From: a virus
Taxonomy: Duplodnaviria > Caudoviricetes
Reading direction: 5' to 3' (one strand)
Virus record (IMG/VR): IMGVR_UViG_3300048631_000217
DNA length: 64,000 bases
The position numbers were made by a program, and so were the translations under genes. Shown here piece after piece: positions 4,421 through 18,460 of this stretch (within the stretch, counting starts at the first letter, position 1; the number at the start of each line of letters is the position of its first letter). The notes below the pieces were generated by a model. The model did no database searches. It had not been told where the DNA came from and saw only the letters and a program-made list of their open reading frames with translations.

Positions 4421-4505
4421 TGGTCCCGAAAGAGGGACTCGAACCCTCACGCCTTGCGGCAATGGATTTTGAATCCATCGCGTCTACCAATTTCACCATT
4501 TCGGG
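4421..4505 (-). tRNA. tRNA-Leu(CAA)
   Basis: Type II cloverleaf, ATGGA-TT CAA AA-TCCAT, encoded CCA. Confidence 0.93.
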
Positions 4506-7408: not shown

Positions 7409-7417
7409 ACGTTCTGT

Positions 7418-7425
7418 TATTTATA
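7418..7425 (-). promoter_or_regulatory. T4-type late promoter TATAAATA upstream of tRNA-Leu
   Basis: Exact T4 gp55 consensus about 10 nt before the tRNA. Confidence 0.6.
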
Positions 7426-8794: not shown

Positions 8795-8870
8795 TGGAGC
8801 GTCCAGTGAGAATCGAACTCATCTCCATGCAAGACTTGGAAGGACTGCTGCATACCATATGCTTGGACGC
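8795..8870 (-). tRNA. tRNA-Gly(UCC), atypical
   Basis: GCGTCCA/TGGACGC acceptor, U73-CCA, CT TCC AA loop; short D-loop, extended irregular anticodon stem. Confidence 0.75.
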
Positions 8871-8935
8871 CTATTACTTTTTTTGTTACATTGTATCTAA
8901 CCTTCTGTTGGGGAAAACACCATGTCCGCAAATAA

Positions 8936-9012: not shown

Positions 9013-9044
9013 TCAGTTTATCTTCTCACAAATCTTATTTAGTG

Positions 9045-13093: not shown

Positions 13094-13169
13094 TGGTGCC
13101 AAGAGAGGGAATTGAACCCCCGACGCGGGGATCTTCAATCCCCCGCTCTACCAACTGAGCTATCTTGGC
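13094..13169 (-). tRNA. tRNA-Phe(GAA)
   Basis: GGGGA-TT GAA GA-TCCCC, CCA. Confidence 0.93.
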
Positions 13170-13170
13170 A

Positions 13171-13246
13171 TGGTCCCGAATCTAGGGTTCGAACCTAGTC
13201 TACCAGATCCACAATCTAGCGTGCTACCATTAAACACCAATTCGGG
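13171..13246 (-). tRNA. tRNA-His(GUG), no G-1, A73
   Basis: CTAGA-TT GTG GA-TCTGG; base -1 is T; ends ACCA. Confidence 0.9.
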
Positions 13247-13498: not shown

Positions 13499-13574
13499 TG
13501 GTGTTAGGTGAAGGAATCGAACCTTCTAACAAACAATTATCAGTTGCTCCGCTCACCGTTTTGCGCTACCTAAC
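13499..13574 (-). tRNA. tRNA-Ile(GAU)
   Basis: AGCAA-CT GAT AA-TTGTT, CCA. Confidence 0.88.
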
Positions 13575-13726
13575 GTTTTCTCACAAGACTTATATAGACT
13601 AGGGATTCGGTTGTGTCAAGTCGTTATTACTTCCTTTTTTCAAAAATCTGATTAACGAGTGCCCATGCGTTTTGCATATGTTTCATCAACATCCCGTCGC
13701 TCGAATCCGCATAACCAACGTTCCTT

Positions 13727-13800
13727 TGGCGACCCTACGGGGACTCTAACCCCGTTTTCCAGTTAGACAGACTGGCGTAATAACCATATACCATAGGGCC
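13727..13800 (-). tRNA. tRNA-Asp(GUC), U37 and TTA T-loop
   Basis: CCAGT-CT GTC TA-ACTGG, G73-CCA. Confidence 0.85.
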
Positions 13801-13809
13801 TAGAAAGGT

Positions 13810-14238
13810 TCAACCGTCCGTATTCTGGTTCTGCATCATTTCCTTACCGCTCCCCTGAAAGTCGATATCGGGAATCAGGGATTGGGGGCGCAGAACAAGA
13901 CGATAGTGGAACTCGGATGCGTTAACATCTTCCAATTGCTCTACTACCACAAAAACGTTGTCGGATAGGGCGAGCATGTTCTTGATGTACTTGTTATTGC
14001 CTGTTTTACACGTATACGAAACCCGGCTCACGGCGTCGTTATTACCTAGGGAACAGAACCCCTCCACAACCAACACAACCTTGTCGGTAATCCCGTTGTA
14101 GATCGTGATGCGGCGCGACACCTCGAAATTGTCTGCGGCGATGGATAGGTTACGCGAAGCTGTATCAGCCGCACGTTCACACCCGGCAACGATTGCCAAA
14201 GCCGCGAATGCGCCAGCAATCAGGTAACGGTTCTTCAT
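13810..14238 (-). CDS. Phage lipoprotein
   Basis: Lipobox VAGC; ASRNLS..ADNFE..RR...YNGIT. Confidence 0.85.
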   Translation of the reverse strand: MKNRYLIAGAFAALAIVAGCERAADTASRNLSIAADNFEVSRRITIYNGITDKVVLVVEGFCSLGNNDAVSRVSYTCKTGNNKYIKNMLALSDNVFVVVEQLEDVNASEFHYRLVLRPQSLIPDIDFQGSGKEMMQNQNTDG

Positions 14239-14239
14239 T

Positions 14240-14818
14240 TCACTTACCTCTAGTTTTCAGGATCTGTTTTGCCACTTTTTTGAACGGTTTGTAAAGGTAG
14301 AACAGTCCCTCTTCTTTGAAAATTTGTTTACCTTTATCGGATTTCCATTCCTCGAAAGTCATGGACTTGCACCCGATGTTGATCAGTTTGTCTTCAATCG
14401 TTACCGTGAAAGGGAACCCGGTGATCACGATAGGGTTCTTGGTCACGATTCCTTCCACACTAACATACTCAGTAACACGAGCCTTTCCGTAAACCAGAGC
14501 ATTTTCGAAAACCCAAGCATCCCCGGAAACCTGAGCATTCCCGGCAACACAAGCATACTCGGTAACACGAGCATTCTCGAAAACCTGAGCATTCCCGGCA
14601 ACACAAGCATTACCGGAAACCTGAGCCTTATCGAAAACACGAGCATTTTCGAAAACACGAGCATTTCCGGAAACCTGAGCCTGTCCGAAAACACGAGCAT
14701 TCGGCCCGATATAGGCGGTTTCGGCAACGGTCGCGGTGTCCGCGACCCATCCGCCGCCGTTCGGATGCTGATGGGCCGGGACAGGGCCTTGCCCATCTTG
14801 GAAGTCAAACATGGTCAT
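14240..14818 (-). CDS. Hexapeptide-repeat (left-handed beta-helix) protein, copy 1
   Basis: HPNGGGWVADTA cap plus 18-bp/6-aa repeats. Confidence 0.85.
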   Translation of the reverse strand: MTMFDFQDGQGPVPAHQHPNGGGWVADTATVAETAYIGPNARVFGQAQVSGNARVFENARVFDKAQVSGNACVAGNAQVFENARVTEYACVAGNAQVSGDAWVFENALVYGKARVTEYVSVEGIVTKNPIVITGFPFTVTIEDKLINIGCKSMTFEEWKSDKGKQIFKEEGLFYLYKPFKKVAKQILKTRGK

Positions 14819-15048
14819 TTCAGATTCCTTTTAGGTTTCGGTCCCATCACATAATGTTGGTTAGGGTATTTCCGGTTCATCTGTCTTACCACATCATTCG
14901 CGACTTCTTCAGTCTCGTACGCCCCGTGTTTGTACCAGTGACCAAATAGGTCAAACCAAGCCCACACGATATACGGTTTCGGCTTCCGTGTTTTTTTGCC
15001 ATTTCTTTTGGGGACTTCAGGTTCATCGGGCATAAAGGATTGGTCCAT
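14815..15048 (-). CDS. Hypothetical protein
   Basis: 77 aa; stop overlaps the next start. Confidence 0.6.
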   Translation of the reverse strand: MDQSFMPDEPEVPKRNGKKTRKPKPYIVWAWFDLFGHWYKHGAYETEEVANDVVRQMNRKYPNQHYVMGPKPKRNLK

Positions 15049-15062
15049 GACATTCCCTTATC

Positions 15063-15144
15063 TGGACCCCCTGACAGGATTCGAACCTGCATCTACCATT
15101 CCGTTACCCTACTCTTGGTTCGTAGCCAAGGGGGATACAGGGGG
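15063..15144 (-). tRNA. tRNA-Arg(ACG)-like RNA lacking the D-arm
   Basis: Acceptor CCCCCTG/CAGGGGG, CTTGG-CT ACG AA-CCAAG, T-arm, CCA; 7-nt linker replaces the D-arm; 23-nt variable region. Confidence 0.75.
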
Positions 15145-15151
15145 ATATTTC

Positions 15152-15226
15152 TGGTTGGGGGCGGTGGATTCGAACCACCCTTCTTCTGATTCAAAGTCAG
15201 CTATTTTGCCACTAAACTAGCCCCCA
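15152..15226 (-). tRNA. tRNA-Gln(UUG)
   Basis: CT TTG AA loop, U1:A72, CCA. Confidence 0.9.
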
Positions 15227-15227
15227 A

Positions 15228-15301
15228 TGGTCAGGGTGGCGGGGATCGAACCCGCGCCTACAGATTCCAAGTCTGTCAGATTACCACTTTCCTACACCCT
15301 G
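15228..15301 (-). tRNA. tRNA-Pro(UGG)
   Basis: ACAGA-CT TGG AA-TCTGT, C1:G72, A73. Confidence 0.9.
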
Positions 15302-15489
15302 AAGAAATTCTTCATCATTTCGGGGGACAATCGGTATCCCCATTCAACGATCAACTGCACATCGTTATCCTCGGTCGTCGGATGCGTGATGGCTTTGCAG
15401 TAGAATTCGATATTACCGCTATCATCCTGCACCTTGACGATACCGAACCGGCCCGCATCCAACCACAGCTTATCCAAAACTTTCATCAC
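15292..15489 (-). CDS. Hypothetical protein
   Basis: GAGG SD, 65 aa. Confidence 0.6.
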   Translation of the reverse strand: MMKVLDKLWLDAGRFGIVKVQDDSGNIEFYCKAITHPTTEDNDVQLIVEWGYRLSPEMMKNFFRV

Positions 15490-15501
15490 AAAACCTCATT
15501 C

Positions 15502-15580
15502 TGGTAGCCCCTACGGGAATCGAACCCGTTCCACGCGGTTGAAAGCCGCGTATCCTAATACCAGTGTAGACCAAGGGGCC
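15502..15580 (-). tRNA. tRNA-Glu(UUC)
   Basis: CGCGG-CT TTC AA-CCGCG, CCA. Confidence 0.92.
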
Positions 15581-15593
15581 ATTTTCGCAAACT

Positions 15594-15681
15594 TGGTAGA
15601 TCGGGTGGGATTCGAACCCACGATGGGCTTGCGCCTGCGGATTAAAAGTCCGCCCCCTTCGACCTCTCGGAACACCGATCT
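15594..15681 (-). tRNA. tRNA with Lys(UUU) anticodon on a type II (long variable arm) body
   Basis: GCGGA-CT TTT AA-TCCGC; variable arm GGC-GCAA-GCC; A73-CCA. Confidence 0.85.
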
Positions 15682-15892
15682 AAAACTTCTCACTCTGCCT
15701 TTGTTTTTCTGCATAGATTTTGTCCAGATCCTGCAACACCCACCGATGCCACATTATGACATAGGCATAGAATGGTATCAGACCTAGCAGAGCAAAATCC
15801 ACGTATCTTGACGCTAAAGGCACACCGATAACCGTCAAGGCAATCATTACAACGCCAAACGTCTTCCGGTGTCTTTTCAGAATATTCATCAA
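15680..15892 (-). CDS. Small membrane protein
   Basis: Two TM-like segments; AGGA SD. Confidence 0.6.
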   Translation of the reverse strand: MMNILKRHRKTFGVVMIALTVIGVPLASRYVDFALLGLIPFYAYVIMWHRWVLQDLDKIYAEKQRQSEKF

Positions 15893-15913
15893 AAGTTCCT
15901 AAAGCCGTTAGGT

Positions 15914-15999
15914 TGGTGCGGGGGGTAGGATTTGAACCTACGCGCGTTTTACCAAACAGGTTTACAGCCTGCCGCATTCGACCACTCTGCCACCCCCAC
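15914..15999 (-). tRNA. tRNA-Tyr(GUA)
   Basis: Type II, CT GTA AA, CCA. Confidence 0.92.
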
Positions 16000-16006
16000 G
16001 ATCTTT

Positions 16007-16297
16007 TTACATCCTAGCAGCACGTTCCCCTTTACGCAACAGGATAACGCGGCGGAATCCGTCTTTCTCAAAGGTTTCGTCCATATAGGACGCCCCCTGA
16101 ACCGGCGCTTGGAAGGTTTCGTCAGTCGGTTCATCGACTTCACCGGCCCATACCCGCATCTTGGCCCGACACTTCATCATGCCATGTTCCAGAGACTCGA
16201 CCACACCGATATAGAAACAGTCATATCGCCCGTAGAAGTCATAGGATTGCACGATATCACCGACTTCGACTTCACTGAAAGGATGATTCTTTTCCAT
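16007..16297 (-). CDS. Hypothetical protein
   Basis: GAGGT SD; TTGACA promoter-like element upstream. Confidence 0.7.
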   Translation of the reverse strand: MEKNHPFSEVEVGDIVQSYDFYGRYDCFYIGVVESLEHGMMKCRAKMRVWAGEVDEPTDETFQAPVQGASYMDETFEKDGFRRVILLRKGERAARM

Positions 16298-16504
16298 AGC
16301 TAACCTCTTTTCTGATCACACTATACAGTATAATGTTTTCAAAATAGTTGTCAACACTTCCATCGGATCATCGCGACGATTTTTGTCACTCCCCTCGTGT
16401 ACCAAATTGTCAAAGAGCATCGGCTACAGGAGCCACTTTTTCAGTATATCGCGGTAATCGTCTTCCCGCTTCTTTTCATCTTCCATCATCAAACCTCATT
16501 CGTC

Positions 16505-16580
16505 TGGTGGTATCGGAAGGATTTGAACCTTCGAACACACGGCTTATGAGACCGTTGCGTGTACCTCTCGCCTCAATACC
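16505..16580 (-). tRNA. tRNA-CAU (Met or Ile2)
   Basis: ACGGT-CT CAT AA-GCCGT, CCA. Confidence 0.88.
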
Positions 16581-16581
16581 A

Positions 16582-16656
16582 TGGAGTTAGGGAAGGGAAT
16601 CGAACCCTTTTAGAATGGATTTGCAATCCACCGCCTAACCAATCAGCCACCCCAAC
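16582..16656 (-). tRNA. tRNA-Cys(GCA)
   Basis: TT GCA AA loop, U73-CCA. Confidence 0.92.
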
Positions 16657-16797
16657 TTAACCAAAAAGGTCGTCATGTTCCTTCCATCTTCGGCAACAGT
16701 AGCAGTTGCTATCATAGTCGGGACACCTCGGACCCCATACCTTCCATACATACAGGTAGGAAATCAATTTGTCAAGCCACATTTTTCCACCTTTCTC

Positions 16798-16834
16798 AAA
16801 AAAAAATCCCCGCAAGACGGCGTGTCTGCGGGGG
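16798..16834 (-). terminator. Intrinsic terminator of a putative attenuator
   Basis: CCCCGCAGAC-ACGCC-GTCTTGCGGGG followed by A and U9. Confidence 0.85.
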
Positions 16835-16861
16835 CGTCAAACCAACATACATGTCGTATGC

Positions 16862-16924
16862 CTACAAGACAACACCCCCGATGAAATCGGGTCGCATATA
16901 CTGTTCTTTGCAGATCATCGACAT
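16862..16924 (-). CDS. Putative attenuator leader peptide MSMICKEQYMRPDFIGGVVL
   Basis: AAAGGA SD; 20 codons; 3' end complementary to the terminator 5' arm. Confidence 0.65.
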   Translation of the reverse strand: MSMICKEQYMRPDFIGGVVL

Positions 16925-16952
16925 AAGAAGGTTTCCTTTGTGTTACAACCCC

Positions 16953-16958
16953 TATTTA
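16953..16958 (-). promoter_or_regulatory. Putative late promoter (TAAATA) upstream of the leader peptide
   Basis: Same CCTAAATA element precedes gp23 (60463); TAAATA also precedes gp22 and gp3. Confidence 0.6.
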
Positions 16959-17024
16959 GGTGGTCGGTTGCCTCATTCCGAACAAAAATTCAAGAAATGA
17001 ATAATGTTGCAAAAAGGCAACATT

Positions 17025-17112
17025 TGGCGGAAGCGGGGGGAATTGAACCCCATACCCGAAGGTACGTCAAGTTTAGCAAACTCGCTTGATCACCAGACCA
17101 ATTCTCACTTCC
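17025..17112 (-). tRNA. tRNA-Ser(GCU)
   Basis: Type II, TT GCT AA, G73-CCA; atypical D region. Confidence 0.85.
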
Positions 17113-17114
17113 TA

Positions 17115-17198
17115 TGGTGGCCCCGCCCGGACTCGAACCGGGACGCGCTAGGCGGCAGATTTTAAGTCTGCTGTGTCTACCTGTTTCACCACGGGGCC
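17115..17198 (-). tRNA. tRNA-Leu(UAA)
   Basis: Type II, GCAGA-CT TAA AA-TCTGC, CCA. Confidence 0.93.
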
Positions 17199-17204
17199 TT
17201 TGGT

Positions 17205-17630
17205 TTATATCAGGTCATAAGAGGTGCTATCTTCTGCCTCAATACCATCTTCCAGACTGGTATTGCACGGTATACATAGTGCGAAACCTGACCTATTTAG
17301 GGCGTTCAAATCCACACCACAGCATTCGCACGTATCAGCATCATACATGAATCTGTAGGGGTCGGCTCTCTTGTGCGCAGTAGAAGGTTTTCCGAACACA
17401 TCAAGATATGTTTGGTGGAATTGGAATTCATCCTCTCGGAAGACTCCTAACACCTTTTCATAAGCAACTTCATCACTCCTAAAAGACAAGAAGTCGAAGA
17501 TACGTTTCCTGAACAATGGAGATTGTTCTGTTTTACTATCTACCCATTCTCGGTATTTGTAACCCCCAAGAAATCTGTCGTCGTCCCGAGCAAACAGAGA
17601 ATGTAGGGTCAGATCGTTCTTGTCATCCAC
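17205..17630 (-). CDS. Hypothetical protein with C-terminal CxxC pairs
   Basis: CECCG...LCIPC. Confidence 0.7.
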   Translation of the reverse strand: MDDKNDLTLHSLFARDDDRFLGGYKYREWVDSKTEQSPLFRKRIFDFLSFRSDEVAYEKVLGVFREDEFQFHQTYLDVFGKPSTAHKRADPYRFMYDADTCECCGVDLNALNRSGFALCIPCNTSLEDGIEAEDSTSYDLI

Positions 17631-18369
17631 GGCGGAAAATCACCTTGATCTTGTCATATAGGCTAGGCTTATCCCACTCTCGCACAGCCACACCCATCTG
17701 GTCAACCACATTCGCGTCAATTTCCCCAACGTCATCAGGTTTCAGGTTCGTCAGGAATTTGTCATAGGTCATGTCGCAGATTTCGTCTTCCCAATCTGCG
17801 ACAAGGTACATGCGGTTATAGACGCGATGTTGCTGTTGATCACGAAACACCCCGAAACAAATAGGATCACGATTCCTCTTCACGAATTCCCGTTCCTTGG
17901 GCGTCTTGTAGTCATTATCTGTCAGGTCGGTAAAGACAACGATGTAATCGTCAAAGATTTCCTTGTCGCGAATCGCCTGAATCTTGTCAGAAGCGGACTC
18001 AGGGATGAAGCGGGAATAGCGGGAAAGTTCGATCAGTTTGACCGAATTCTTCGGGGATATCCTGTCAATCCCGGCCTTGACCGCATCCCTTTGGACATAC
18101 TTCGTCACTCCGATTTCCAGCAAGCACCGTTCACGCAGCAAAACCTGTGCCTGAAACTTCAGATCTTTGACAAAGTTTGTCTGGCCATTTTTCTCAGCAC
18201 GAATGATCTCTTTGGCGCAATAGTGCAATTGCGCGTCAAGTTGTTCGGGGGTAATTATCTGCCCCTCGTTTTTAAGGACACTGAAATACTCGTTTGGGTC
18301 AATTCCACCTTCAATTTCAACCTGAACATTTTGACCTACCGCAATTACAGGCTCATAATCCATCATCAC
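17623..18369 (-). CDS. Conserved hypothetical phage protein
   Basis: 248 aa, RDPICFG...YLVADW. Confidence 0.8.
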   Translation of the reverse strand: MMMDYEPVIAVGQNVQVEIEGGIDPNEYFSVLKNEGQIITPEQLDAQLHYCAKEIIRAEKNGQTNFVKDLKFQAQVLLRERCLLEIGVTKYVQRDAVKAGIDRISPKNSVKLIELSRYSRFIPESASDKIQAIRDKEIFDDYIVVFTDLTDNDYKTPKEREFVKRNRDPICFGVFRDQQQHRVYNRMYLVADWEDEICDMTYDKFLTNLKPDDVGEIDANVVDQMGVAVREWDKPSLYDKIKVIFRRG

Positions 18370-18384
18370 ATTCCCATAGTGTTA

Positions 18385-18460
18385 TGGTGCGCCTAGGAGG
18401 ATTCGAACCCCCGACACCGGAATTAGAAGTTCCGTGTTCTGTCCCCTGAACTATAGACGC
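18385..18460 (-). tRNA. tRNA-Arg(UCU)
   Basis: CGGAA-CT TCT AA-TTCCG, CCA. Confidence 0.93.

Follow-up and report, generated by a model that had tools for sequence, protein, structure and literature searches.

The 64-kb window analysed here (bases 61992-125991 of a 150,723-bp contig from a T4-like phage) carries all of that genome's transfer RNA (tRNA) genes on its minus strand, between positions 4421 and 18460. Inside this array lies a short unit with a late-promoter motif, a 20-codon open reading frame (ORF) and a strong intrinsic terminator, and the codons of the ORF mirror the identities of the tRNA genes behind it. From the sequence, we put at roughly 70% the probability that the element is a ribosome-mediated leader-peptide attenuator, through which transcription would probably continue into the tRNA genes only when ribosomes read the leader codons slowly. 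This reading draws on a promoter motif that is validated across the genome, on folds that fall into three states, on the match between leader codons and tRNAs, and on the recurrence of the design in other phages.

Promoter, leader and predicted folds

An initial annotation of this DNA had described a Shine-Dalgarno (SD) sequence, a 20-codon ORF, a small hairpin and a U9 terminator. Each is present on the minus strand at the window positions given here.

16984-17024, minus strand: hairpin followed by T5 directly behind tRNA-Ser(GCT), dG about -9; a weak terminator-like end
16953-16958, minus strand: late-promoter core TAAATA in the context CC-TAAATA, 28 nt before the ATG
16934-16939, minus strand: SD sequence AAAGGA, 9 nt before the ATG, with the same spacing as in other late-promoter genes
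16924 (ATG) to 16862 (TAG), minus strand: leader ORF of 20 codons
16883-16915, minus strand: putative sensor codons 4-14
16850-16925, minus strand: long imperfect hairpin, in which the start and 5' codons pair with the stop codon and post-stop sequence
16877-16891, minus strand: inner GC hairpin CCCGAT-TTC-ATCGGG over codons 12-16, whose 3' strand belongs to the predicted antiterminator
16860-16880, minus strand: region 2, the ORF 3' end with the stop codon, predicted to pair with the terminator 5' arm in two alternative registers
16798-16839, minus strand: intrinsic terminator (5' arm, loop, 3' arm and U9), with stem-loop 16833-16808, U9 16806-16798 and dG -18.0

The TAAATA hexamer had been called late-promoter-like, and this description proved to be well founded. 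The hexamer occurs 44 times on the minus strand of the genome compared to 6 times on the plus strand, and 22 of the 44 minus-strand copies fall within the non-coding 14% (outside long ORFs). At 20 of the 44 sites, an SD sequence and the ATG of an ORF of at least 40 codons follow within 60 nt downstream; control hexamers gave 1-11 such sites. The base preceding TAAATA is C or A in 18 of these 20 cases, and the ATG lies 11-57 nt away. The phage encodes T4-type head scaffold, major head and tail tube proteins, and all three are among the genes behind TAAATA sites, the major head gene having the same CC-TAAATA context as the leader. A gp55-type late sigma factor is also encoded by the phage (53582-54091, E 1.3e-49). 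By these sequence criteria, which validate the motif genome-wide, the TAAATA at 16953-16958 is the core of a phage late promoter. The hairpin at 17024-16984 closes the upstream unit of tRNA-Arg, two ORFs, tRNA-Leu and tRNA-Ser, and thus sets the promoter apart from tRNA-Ser. Late motifs also stand directly before tRNA-Leu(TAG)/Thr (TATAAATA, 7416-7423) and tRNA-Asn (C-TAAATA, 9036-9041) on the minus strand, with no leader or terminator alongside, and late tRNA transcription in the array therefore appears to proceed without a leader as well.

We scanned the whole genome for hairpins of -10 kcal/mol or better that are followed by six or more T residues. This search returned eight strong intrinsic terminators, all on the minus strand; the one at 16833-16798 is among the strongest, and it is the only one inside the tRNA array. 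It is placed 27 nt past the leader stop codon, and strain variants at the element differ in the length of the U tract alone, from U8 to U10. The G-rich tail of the leader ORF repeats part of the terminator 3' arm, and this mimicry, which had been pointed out in the initial annotation, was seen again in side-by-side folds. The attenuator hallmarks present are a predicted short ORF preceded by an SD sequence, an intrinsic terminator before tRNA genes, and antiterminator and anti-antiterminator pairings. No Rfam 15 family reached its gathering score in 16700-17028, and the T-box riboswitch model gave no match even at E up to 10.

Without constraints, the transcript folds into the long hairpin and the terminator. 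Taken as a whole, the 231-nt spacer behind tRNA-Ser folds with z -5.2; for the ORF hairpin by itself, z is -2.66. We then refolded the transcript as far as the terminator loop with the presumed footprint of a ribosome masked, and the predicted structure changed with the position of the ribosome:

No ribosome (untranslated): long hairpin, -31.7; terminator arm free
Ribosome A site at codons 4-12: ORF 3' end and terminator 5' arm joined in either of two registers, at -19 to -27 kcal/mol
Ribosome A site at codon 14: -11 kcal/mol of antiterminator left
Ribosome at the stop codon: no antiterminator

Folding with and without the ribosome-covered region, a check that had been proposed together with the annotation, yields a consistent three-state switch, and in silico this behaviour is that of a classical attenuator. 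One antiterminator register is the pairing originally put forward, between ORF 3' end and terminator 5' arm, and the other joins CGGGGGUGUUG with UGACGCCCCCG. The small CCCGAT-TTC-ATCGGG hairpin does not have the role of 1:2 element that was first assigned to it: it merely abuts region 2, and it is the long hairpin at 16925-16850 that competes with the antiterminator in the folds and would act as the anti-antiterminator (1:2). The inner hairpin may also act as a pause hairpin. About 1% of shuffles reproduced the full fold pattern under an ad hoc criterion.

In the mechanism that we propose, polymerase would start at the gp55-type late promoter (16958-16953), or come from upstream, and transcribe the 20-codon ORF. 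If the ORF is untranslated or is quickly read to its UAG, region 2 would be held in the long hairpin or under the terminating ribosome; the terminator would then form, and a transcript of ~150 nt would stop at U9. A ribosome that lags on codons 4-14 would free region 2 to pair with the terminator 5' arm, and the antiterminated polymerase would enter a 41-codon ORF, tRNA-Cys, tRNA-CAU and further tRNAs. Because each codon occurs once, the element would either sum decoding speed over all of the matched tRNAs or sense the outright loss of one of them. Translation of the leader, stalling, read-through and the physiological trigger are the steps that we infer.

Leader codons and the tRNA genes behind them

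ARAGORN called 22 tRNA genes, Rfam added tRNA-Ser(GCT), and tRNA-Arg(ACG) was found with the Rfam tRNA model under permissive filters. The genes and sites around the element are as follows.

18385-18460, minus strand: tRNA-Arg(TCT), upstream of the element
17115-17198, minus strand: tRNA-Leu(TAA), upstream of the element
17029-17112, minus strand: tRNA-Ser(GCT), type II, upstream of the element; missed by ARAGORN, 47.7 bits with the Rfam tRNA-Sec model
16747-16775, minus strand: sigma70-like TTGACA-N17-TATGTA directly behind the terminator, with a poor -10; missed by the promoter scan
16657-16782, minus strand: 41-codon ORF, rich in Cys, Trp and Tyr, with a strong SD sequence, between terminator and tRNA-Cys
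13499-16656, minus strand: the ten matched tRNAs, Cys, CAU, Tyr, Lys, Glu, Pro, Gln, Arg(ACG), Asp and Ile
15066-15144, minus strand: the odd tRNA-Arg(ACG), 32.5 bits with the Rfam tRNA model against a gathering score of 29
13094-13246, minus strand: tRNA-His, which is absent from the leader codons, and tRNA-Phe, which corresponds to codon 14

The tRNAs behind the terminator follow in the order Cys, CAU, Tyr, Lys, Glu, Pro, Gln, Arg(ACG), Asp, Ile, His and Phe, as first listed. Codons 4-13 of the leader (ICKEQYMRPD) are the exact set of the ten nearest downstream tRNA identities, a concordance stronger than had been claimed, and codon 14 (F) has the identity of the twelfth tRNA. The initial annotation was also right that the leader has no run of one amino acid, codons 4-14 all being different.

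We scored every window of distinct residues against every set of "nearest n" tRNAs. The leader reached 1/C(20,10) = 5.4e-6, the lowest possible value, and the runner-up among the 59 ATG ORFs of 12-60 codons on the same strand of the array reached 1.35e-3. None of 2,000,000 random 20-mers from two null models reached 5.5e-6, and a fraction of 4e-5 reached the 7.2e-5 of the original calculation. This type of score rewards distinctness, a trait that was spotted post hoc, and we therefore used prefix coverage as well, a parameter-free count, outward from the terminator, of the nearest identities that are all found in the peptide:

As annotated: coverage 10, P 4.6-4.9e-4
Nearest CAU tRNA taken as AUA-reading Ile2: coverage 9, P 2e-3
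tRNA-Arg(ACG) omitted: coverage 9, P 9e-4

The match between codons and tRNAs is significant and robust. The concordance behind the earlier chance estimate of ~7e-5 stands, with a coverage P of about 5e-4, but the figure itself does not, being conditional and post hoc. With standard wobble, the matching phage anticodons read all sensor codons but CCC, and CAG and CGA need wobble or inosine.

In the odd tRNA-Arg(ACG), acceptor stem, anticodon arm, T arm and CCA are all intact, but a normal D arm is missing and the variable region measures 23 nt. Small ORFs and sigma70-type promoters (16354-16327 and ~13618) are interspersed among the ten matched tRNA genes. The 41-codon ORF opens right behind the U tract and closes one base short of tRNA-Cys, and it has no match to known families.

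Leader cassettes in other phages

Codon-matched leader cassettes were found in three other phage sequences: LR745206.1, G002 (IMGVR_UViG_3300047548_001236) and G003 (IMGVR_UViG_3300007722_000005).

L008:18335-18492: cassette of LR745206.1
L010:701-890: cassette of LR745206.1
L011:704-865: cassette of LR745206.1
L093:1777-1923 (bases 68676-68822), minus strand: leader cassette of G002, the cleanest analogue
L092:8118-8228: leader of G003, a near-leaderless ORF behind a sigma70-type promoter

LR745206.1 is an uncultured huge phage of 634,780 bp that surfaced via a tRNA match; it has 61 tRNA matches, arranged in blocks. Three blocks are each preceded by a promoter-like box, an ORF of 31-38 codons and a strong terminator just before the first tRNA. 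These cassettes share the 5' box TTTTTAATATATAAGAA, and their leaders begin M-T-T or M-K-T. The L008 leader has a 16-residue stretch in which 13 residues are drawn from His, Lys, Phe, Trp and Ser, and the block behind the leader is His/Phe/Trp/Lys/Arg/Ser; the value of this leader tops those of 172 short ORFs of the locus. The first 21 residues of the L010 leader, and 24 of the first 25, are drawn from Asn, Arg, Leu, Val, Ile, Thr and Met, a set that equals the identities of the 19 tRNAs behind it. L011 has a leader stretch rich in Pro, Gln and Asp before a Pro/Asp/Gln block.

G002 is a T4-like contig of 282,855 bp whose head protein shares 66% identity with that of the phage studied here. Its cassette consists of the TATAAATA motif, an SD sequence, a 19-codon ORF and a terminator of -16 to -20 kcal/mol, and it folds with z -6.1. 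A compact block of 13 tRNAs starts ~25-30 nt behind the terminator, in the order Cys, Ile, Tyr, Phe, Cys, Lys(CTT), Glu(TTC), Lys(TTT), Phe, Met, Tyr, Glu(CTC) and Ile. Leader residues 3-12 (YFICKFKEYM) are confined to the seven identities of this block and use all seven (P 3.5e-6), and the leader carries AAA, AAG, GAA and GAG, corresponding to the paired Lys and Glu isoacceptors. Most tRNAs of G002 are scattered singly and without terminators. In G003, a T4-like contig of 92,205 bp, 19 different amino acids occur within 36 residues of the ORF (P 0.03), which in its longest form covers 13 of 13 identities of the following block. A terminator follows the ORF, whose tail mimics the terminator 3' arm; a second promoter and ~270 nt of structured sequence precede a cluster of ~30 tRNAs, and the gap from terminator to tRNA is 360 nt. 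Two further terminators had no leader, one at L094 rc 4628 and one at L092 rc 2835, which sits among tRNA-like sequence.

The cassettes in LR745206.1, G002 and G003 have in common with the window their own promoter, a matched short ORF, a strong terminator and tRNAs on the same strand. In the window and in L008, L010, L011, L093 and L092, the ORF folds back on itself between start codon and stop region, and a terminator follows. In contrast to these cassettes, the window leader names each amino acid once, three tRNAs lie upstream of it, and extra promoters fall within the regulated stretch. A terminator less than ~30 nt before a compact tRNA block is also absent here, where the first tRNA, tRNA-Cys, lies 141 nt behind the terminator, with the 41-codon ORF and a promoter-like site in between, and not 17-30 nt behind it. 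There is no homology between the window element and these cassettes at the DNA level. The tRNA-Cys genes of the three T4-like phages share no homology beyond general tRNA features. Because the leaders do not align as DNA and the tRNA-Cys genes are not close, the likeness appears to be one of design and not of recent common descent.

Searches aimed at the locus itself returned little. Megablast and blastn against phage records gave tRNA-Leu matches only, and IMG/VR queries with two neighbouring proteins and the leader 21-mer found nothing. A tRNA-Cys 23-mer matched an unrelated AT-rich phage. Among the neighbouring proteins, one of 141 amino acids is an orphan and one of 248 amino acids has homologues at 54% identity or less; the contigs that carry these homologues (L003, L005 and L006) have different tRNA sets and no leader analogue. 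In the nearest strains (X5), the element is unchanged except for the U-tract length, and these strains are uninformative on conservation because they are about 99% identical.

Several known systems resemble the element in part. The thrL and ilvL leaders, and also trpL, hisL, leuL and pheL, likewise combine a short ORF with an intrinsic terminator and exclusive 1:2, 2:3 and 3:4 pairings. In leaders of the thrL/ilvL type, the stop codon is similarly set so that a terminating ribosome blocks the antiterminator, and more than one amino acid can be sensed. The enterobacterial leaders control biosynthetic enzymes, whereas the window element would, judging from its position, control tRNA genes; it also differs from them in having no codon runs, one codon each for ten or eleven amino acids, and a phage late promoter. 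The pheM leader of pheST and the T-box riboswitches are alike in that the supply of a matching tRNA sets the expression of a translation component through termination or antitermination. However, pheM senses one tRNA and controls a synthetase, and T-boxes bind uncharged tRNA directly, with no ribosome. The rnTrpL RNA of Sinorhizobium (PMC6614838) is a terminated leader transcript that exists as a discrete small RNA, possibly acting alone, and in this it is like the transcript proposed here, for which no target or trans-acting function can be proposed. In our full-text literature search, no account of tRNA genes under leader-peptide attenuation came up, whether for phages or otherwise.

Alternative readings and the setting of the array

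A number of findings weigh against the attenuator reading. The pattern was picked out post hoc from a very large scan. The leader has one codon per amino acid, eleven different ones in codons 4-14, unlike the runs of regulating-amino-acid codons that are a hallmark of classical attenuators; it skips His; and neither its CCC nor its CAG is the Watson-Crick codon of the corresponding phage tRNA, Pro(UGG) or Gln(UUG). Neither the ARAGORN drawings nor blastn against E. coli types the nearest CAU tRNA as Met or Ile2. Pairing as good as that of the antiterminator arose in 16% of dinucleotide shuffles and in 5% of genomic 57-mers, and 18% of shuffles formed an antiterminator whichever stall state was imposed. 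Stalling at codons 12-14 would itself place the ribosome over part of region 2, and the equilibrium fold holds the SD region and the AUG in base pairs. None of the relatives found permits an informative alignment of the element or an analysis of covariation, and DNA alignment of the three T4-like leaders (this phage, G002 and G003) showed no homology. The element does not stand in front of the tRNA cluster, as had been stated, but inside the array, since tRNA-Arg(TCT), tRNA-Leu(TAA) and tRNA-Ser(GCT) precede it. Finally, the sigma70-type promoters behind the terminator can supply most of the matched tRNAs without read-through.

These downstream promoters had been anticipated in the initial annotation, and we found them at 16775-16747 (weak), 16354-16327 and ~13618; strong sigma70-type promoters are those at 16354-16327, ~13618 and 13083-13055. 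Because they would make most of the matched tRNAs independently, the attenuator would count mainly for tRNA-Cys and tRNA-CAU early in infection, and for the whole stretch late if host-type promoters are then off in the T4-like manner. Contigs from RNA libraries cover 16432-16913, and one of them (16757-16913) crosses the terminator; 16937-17119 has no such cover, an absence to which we attach no weight. Such a contig is weak evidence, because DNA carry-over is possible in these libraries.

The element could instead be a stand-alone late unit that makes a small structured RNA of ~150 nt or a 20-residue micropeptide, with no gating of tRNA genes and a codon match due to chance. Promoter, hairpin and terminator are the normal anatomy of a small RNA gene, a promoter-like site right behind the terminator, here and in G003, is typical of separate transcription units, and T4 makes stable small RNAs from its tRNA region. 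We nevertheless regard this as improbable, as it leaves unexplained both the correspondence between codons 4-13 and the ten nearest tRNAs and the matched leaders before tRNA blocks in four other places, and the sequence matches no Rfam family. The two readings are not fully exclusive, in that a terminated attenuator transcript would itself be a small RNA. We consider it very unlikely that the terminator merely ends the upstream unit (tRNA-Arg, two ORFs, tRNA-Leu and tRNA-Ser), with trailer hairpins that serve tRNA processing or stability and with TAAATA, SD sequence and ORF arising by chance. The 231-nt spacer is indeed a run of hairpins, one of which holds TAAATA in its loop, and the antiterminator pairing is statistically weak. 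Against this stand the weak terminator-like hairpin that already lies behind tRNA-Ser, the agreement of the TAAATA context with that of validated late genes, and again the codon match and the analogues in other phages. A chance ORF beside an ordinary terminator was dropped after the codon/tRNA match scores and TAAATA counts.

If the element is an attenuator, its trigger could be the cleavage of host tRNAs by anticodon nucleases, with induction of nuclease-resistant phage replacements. The Lys, Tyr, Asp and Arg tRNAs are known targets of such nucleases. A single codon would suffice if a tRNA species were destroyed outright, and phage tRNAs rescue infection from tRNA-cleaving defences (PMC10264068, PMC11555353, PMC11464382). 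However, the sequence favours nucleases no more than a general tRNA shortage or high late-gene demand, and in the analogues each amino acid has several codons, a pattern that agrees with graded sensing. This specific form of the attenuator reading therefore seems doubtful to us.

More generally, we lean towards the view that phages as distant in lineage as T4-like and huge phages gate tRNA genes with "checklist" leaders, on which the ribosome would be probed with the very codons that the downstream tRNAs decode. This locus would be the extreme form, with one codon for each of ten tRNAs behind a late promoter, and would serve as an integrating sensor that replenishes the tRNA pool late in infection, once host tRNAs are exhausted or destroyed. 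For fifty years there has been debate over the reason for tRNA genes in phages; among the proposals, they compensate for codon usage, replace host tRNAs that have been degraded, or allow escape from anticodon nucleases. A checklist leader would mean that the phage itself measures decoding capacity and makes tRNAs on demand, which would turn this debate into a testable regulatory circuit, and leader-peptide attenuation would then reach beyond amino-acid and synthetase genes to tRNA genes. Being short (~170 nt) and self-contained, the element could be assayed in a reporter or a cell-free coupled system even though the phage is uncultured.

The sequencing runs that contain the contig are hydrothermal-vent and marine metagenomes, and the genome has a G+C content of 47%. 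The nearest named phage is Yersinia phage YerA41, with 44% amino-acid identity in one neighbouring protein and a different tRNA region; the major head protein has no IMG/VR relative above 70% identity.

Three further features concern RNA genes and tRNA metabolism. A tRNA-like gene at 8797-8872 on the minus strand has an acceptor stem, a T arm, CCA and an irregular anticodon arm that contains CTTCCAA; it is possibly Gly UCC, and no tool called it on that strand. Outside the window, ARAGORN called a candidate permuted transfer-messenger RNA with the tag ANENFAPKTALVA (G000:C1:26520-26993, minus strand). The gene for the 248-amino-acid protein (17623-18369, minus strand) belongs to phrog_10081, which is labelled transposase. 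In distant phages (L006:8078-18350), this protein adjoins a CCA-adding enzyme, PNKP-like genes, two RNA ligase genes and a tRNA block, and these neighbours suggest that it is linked to tRNA metabolism and not to transposition.

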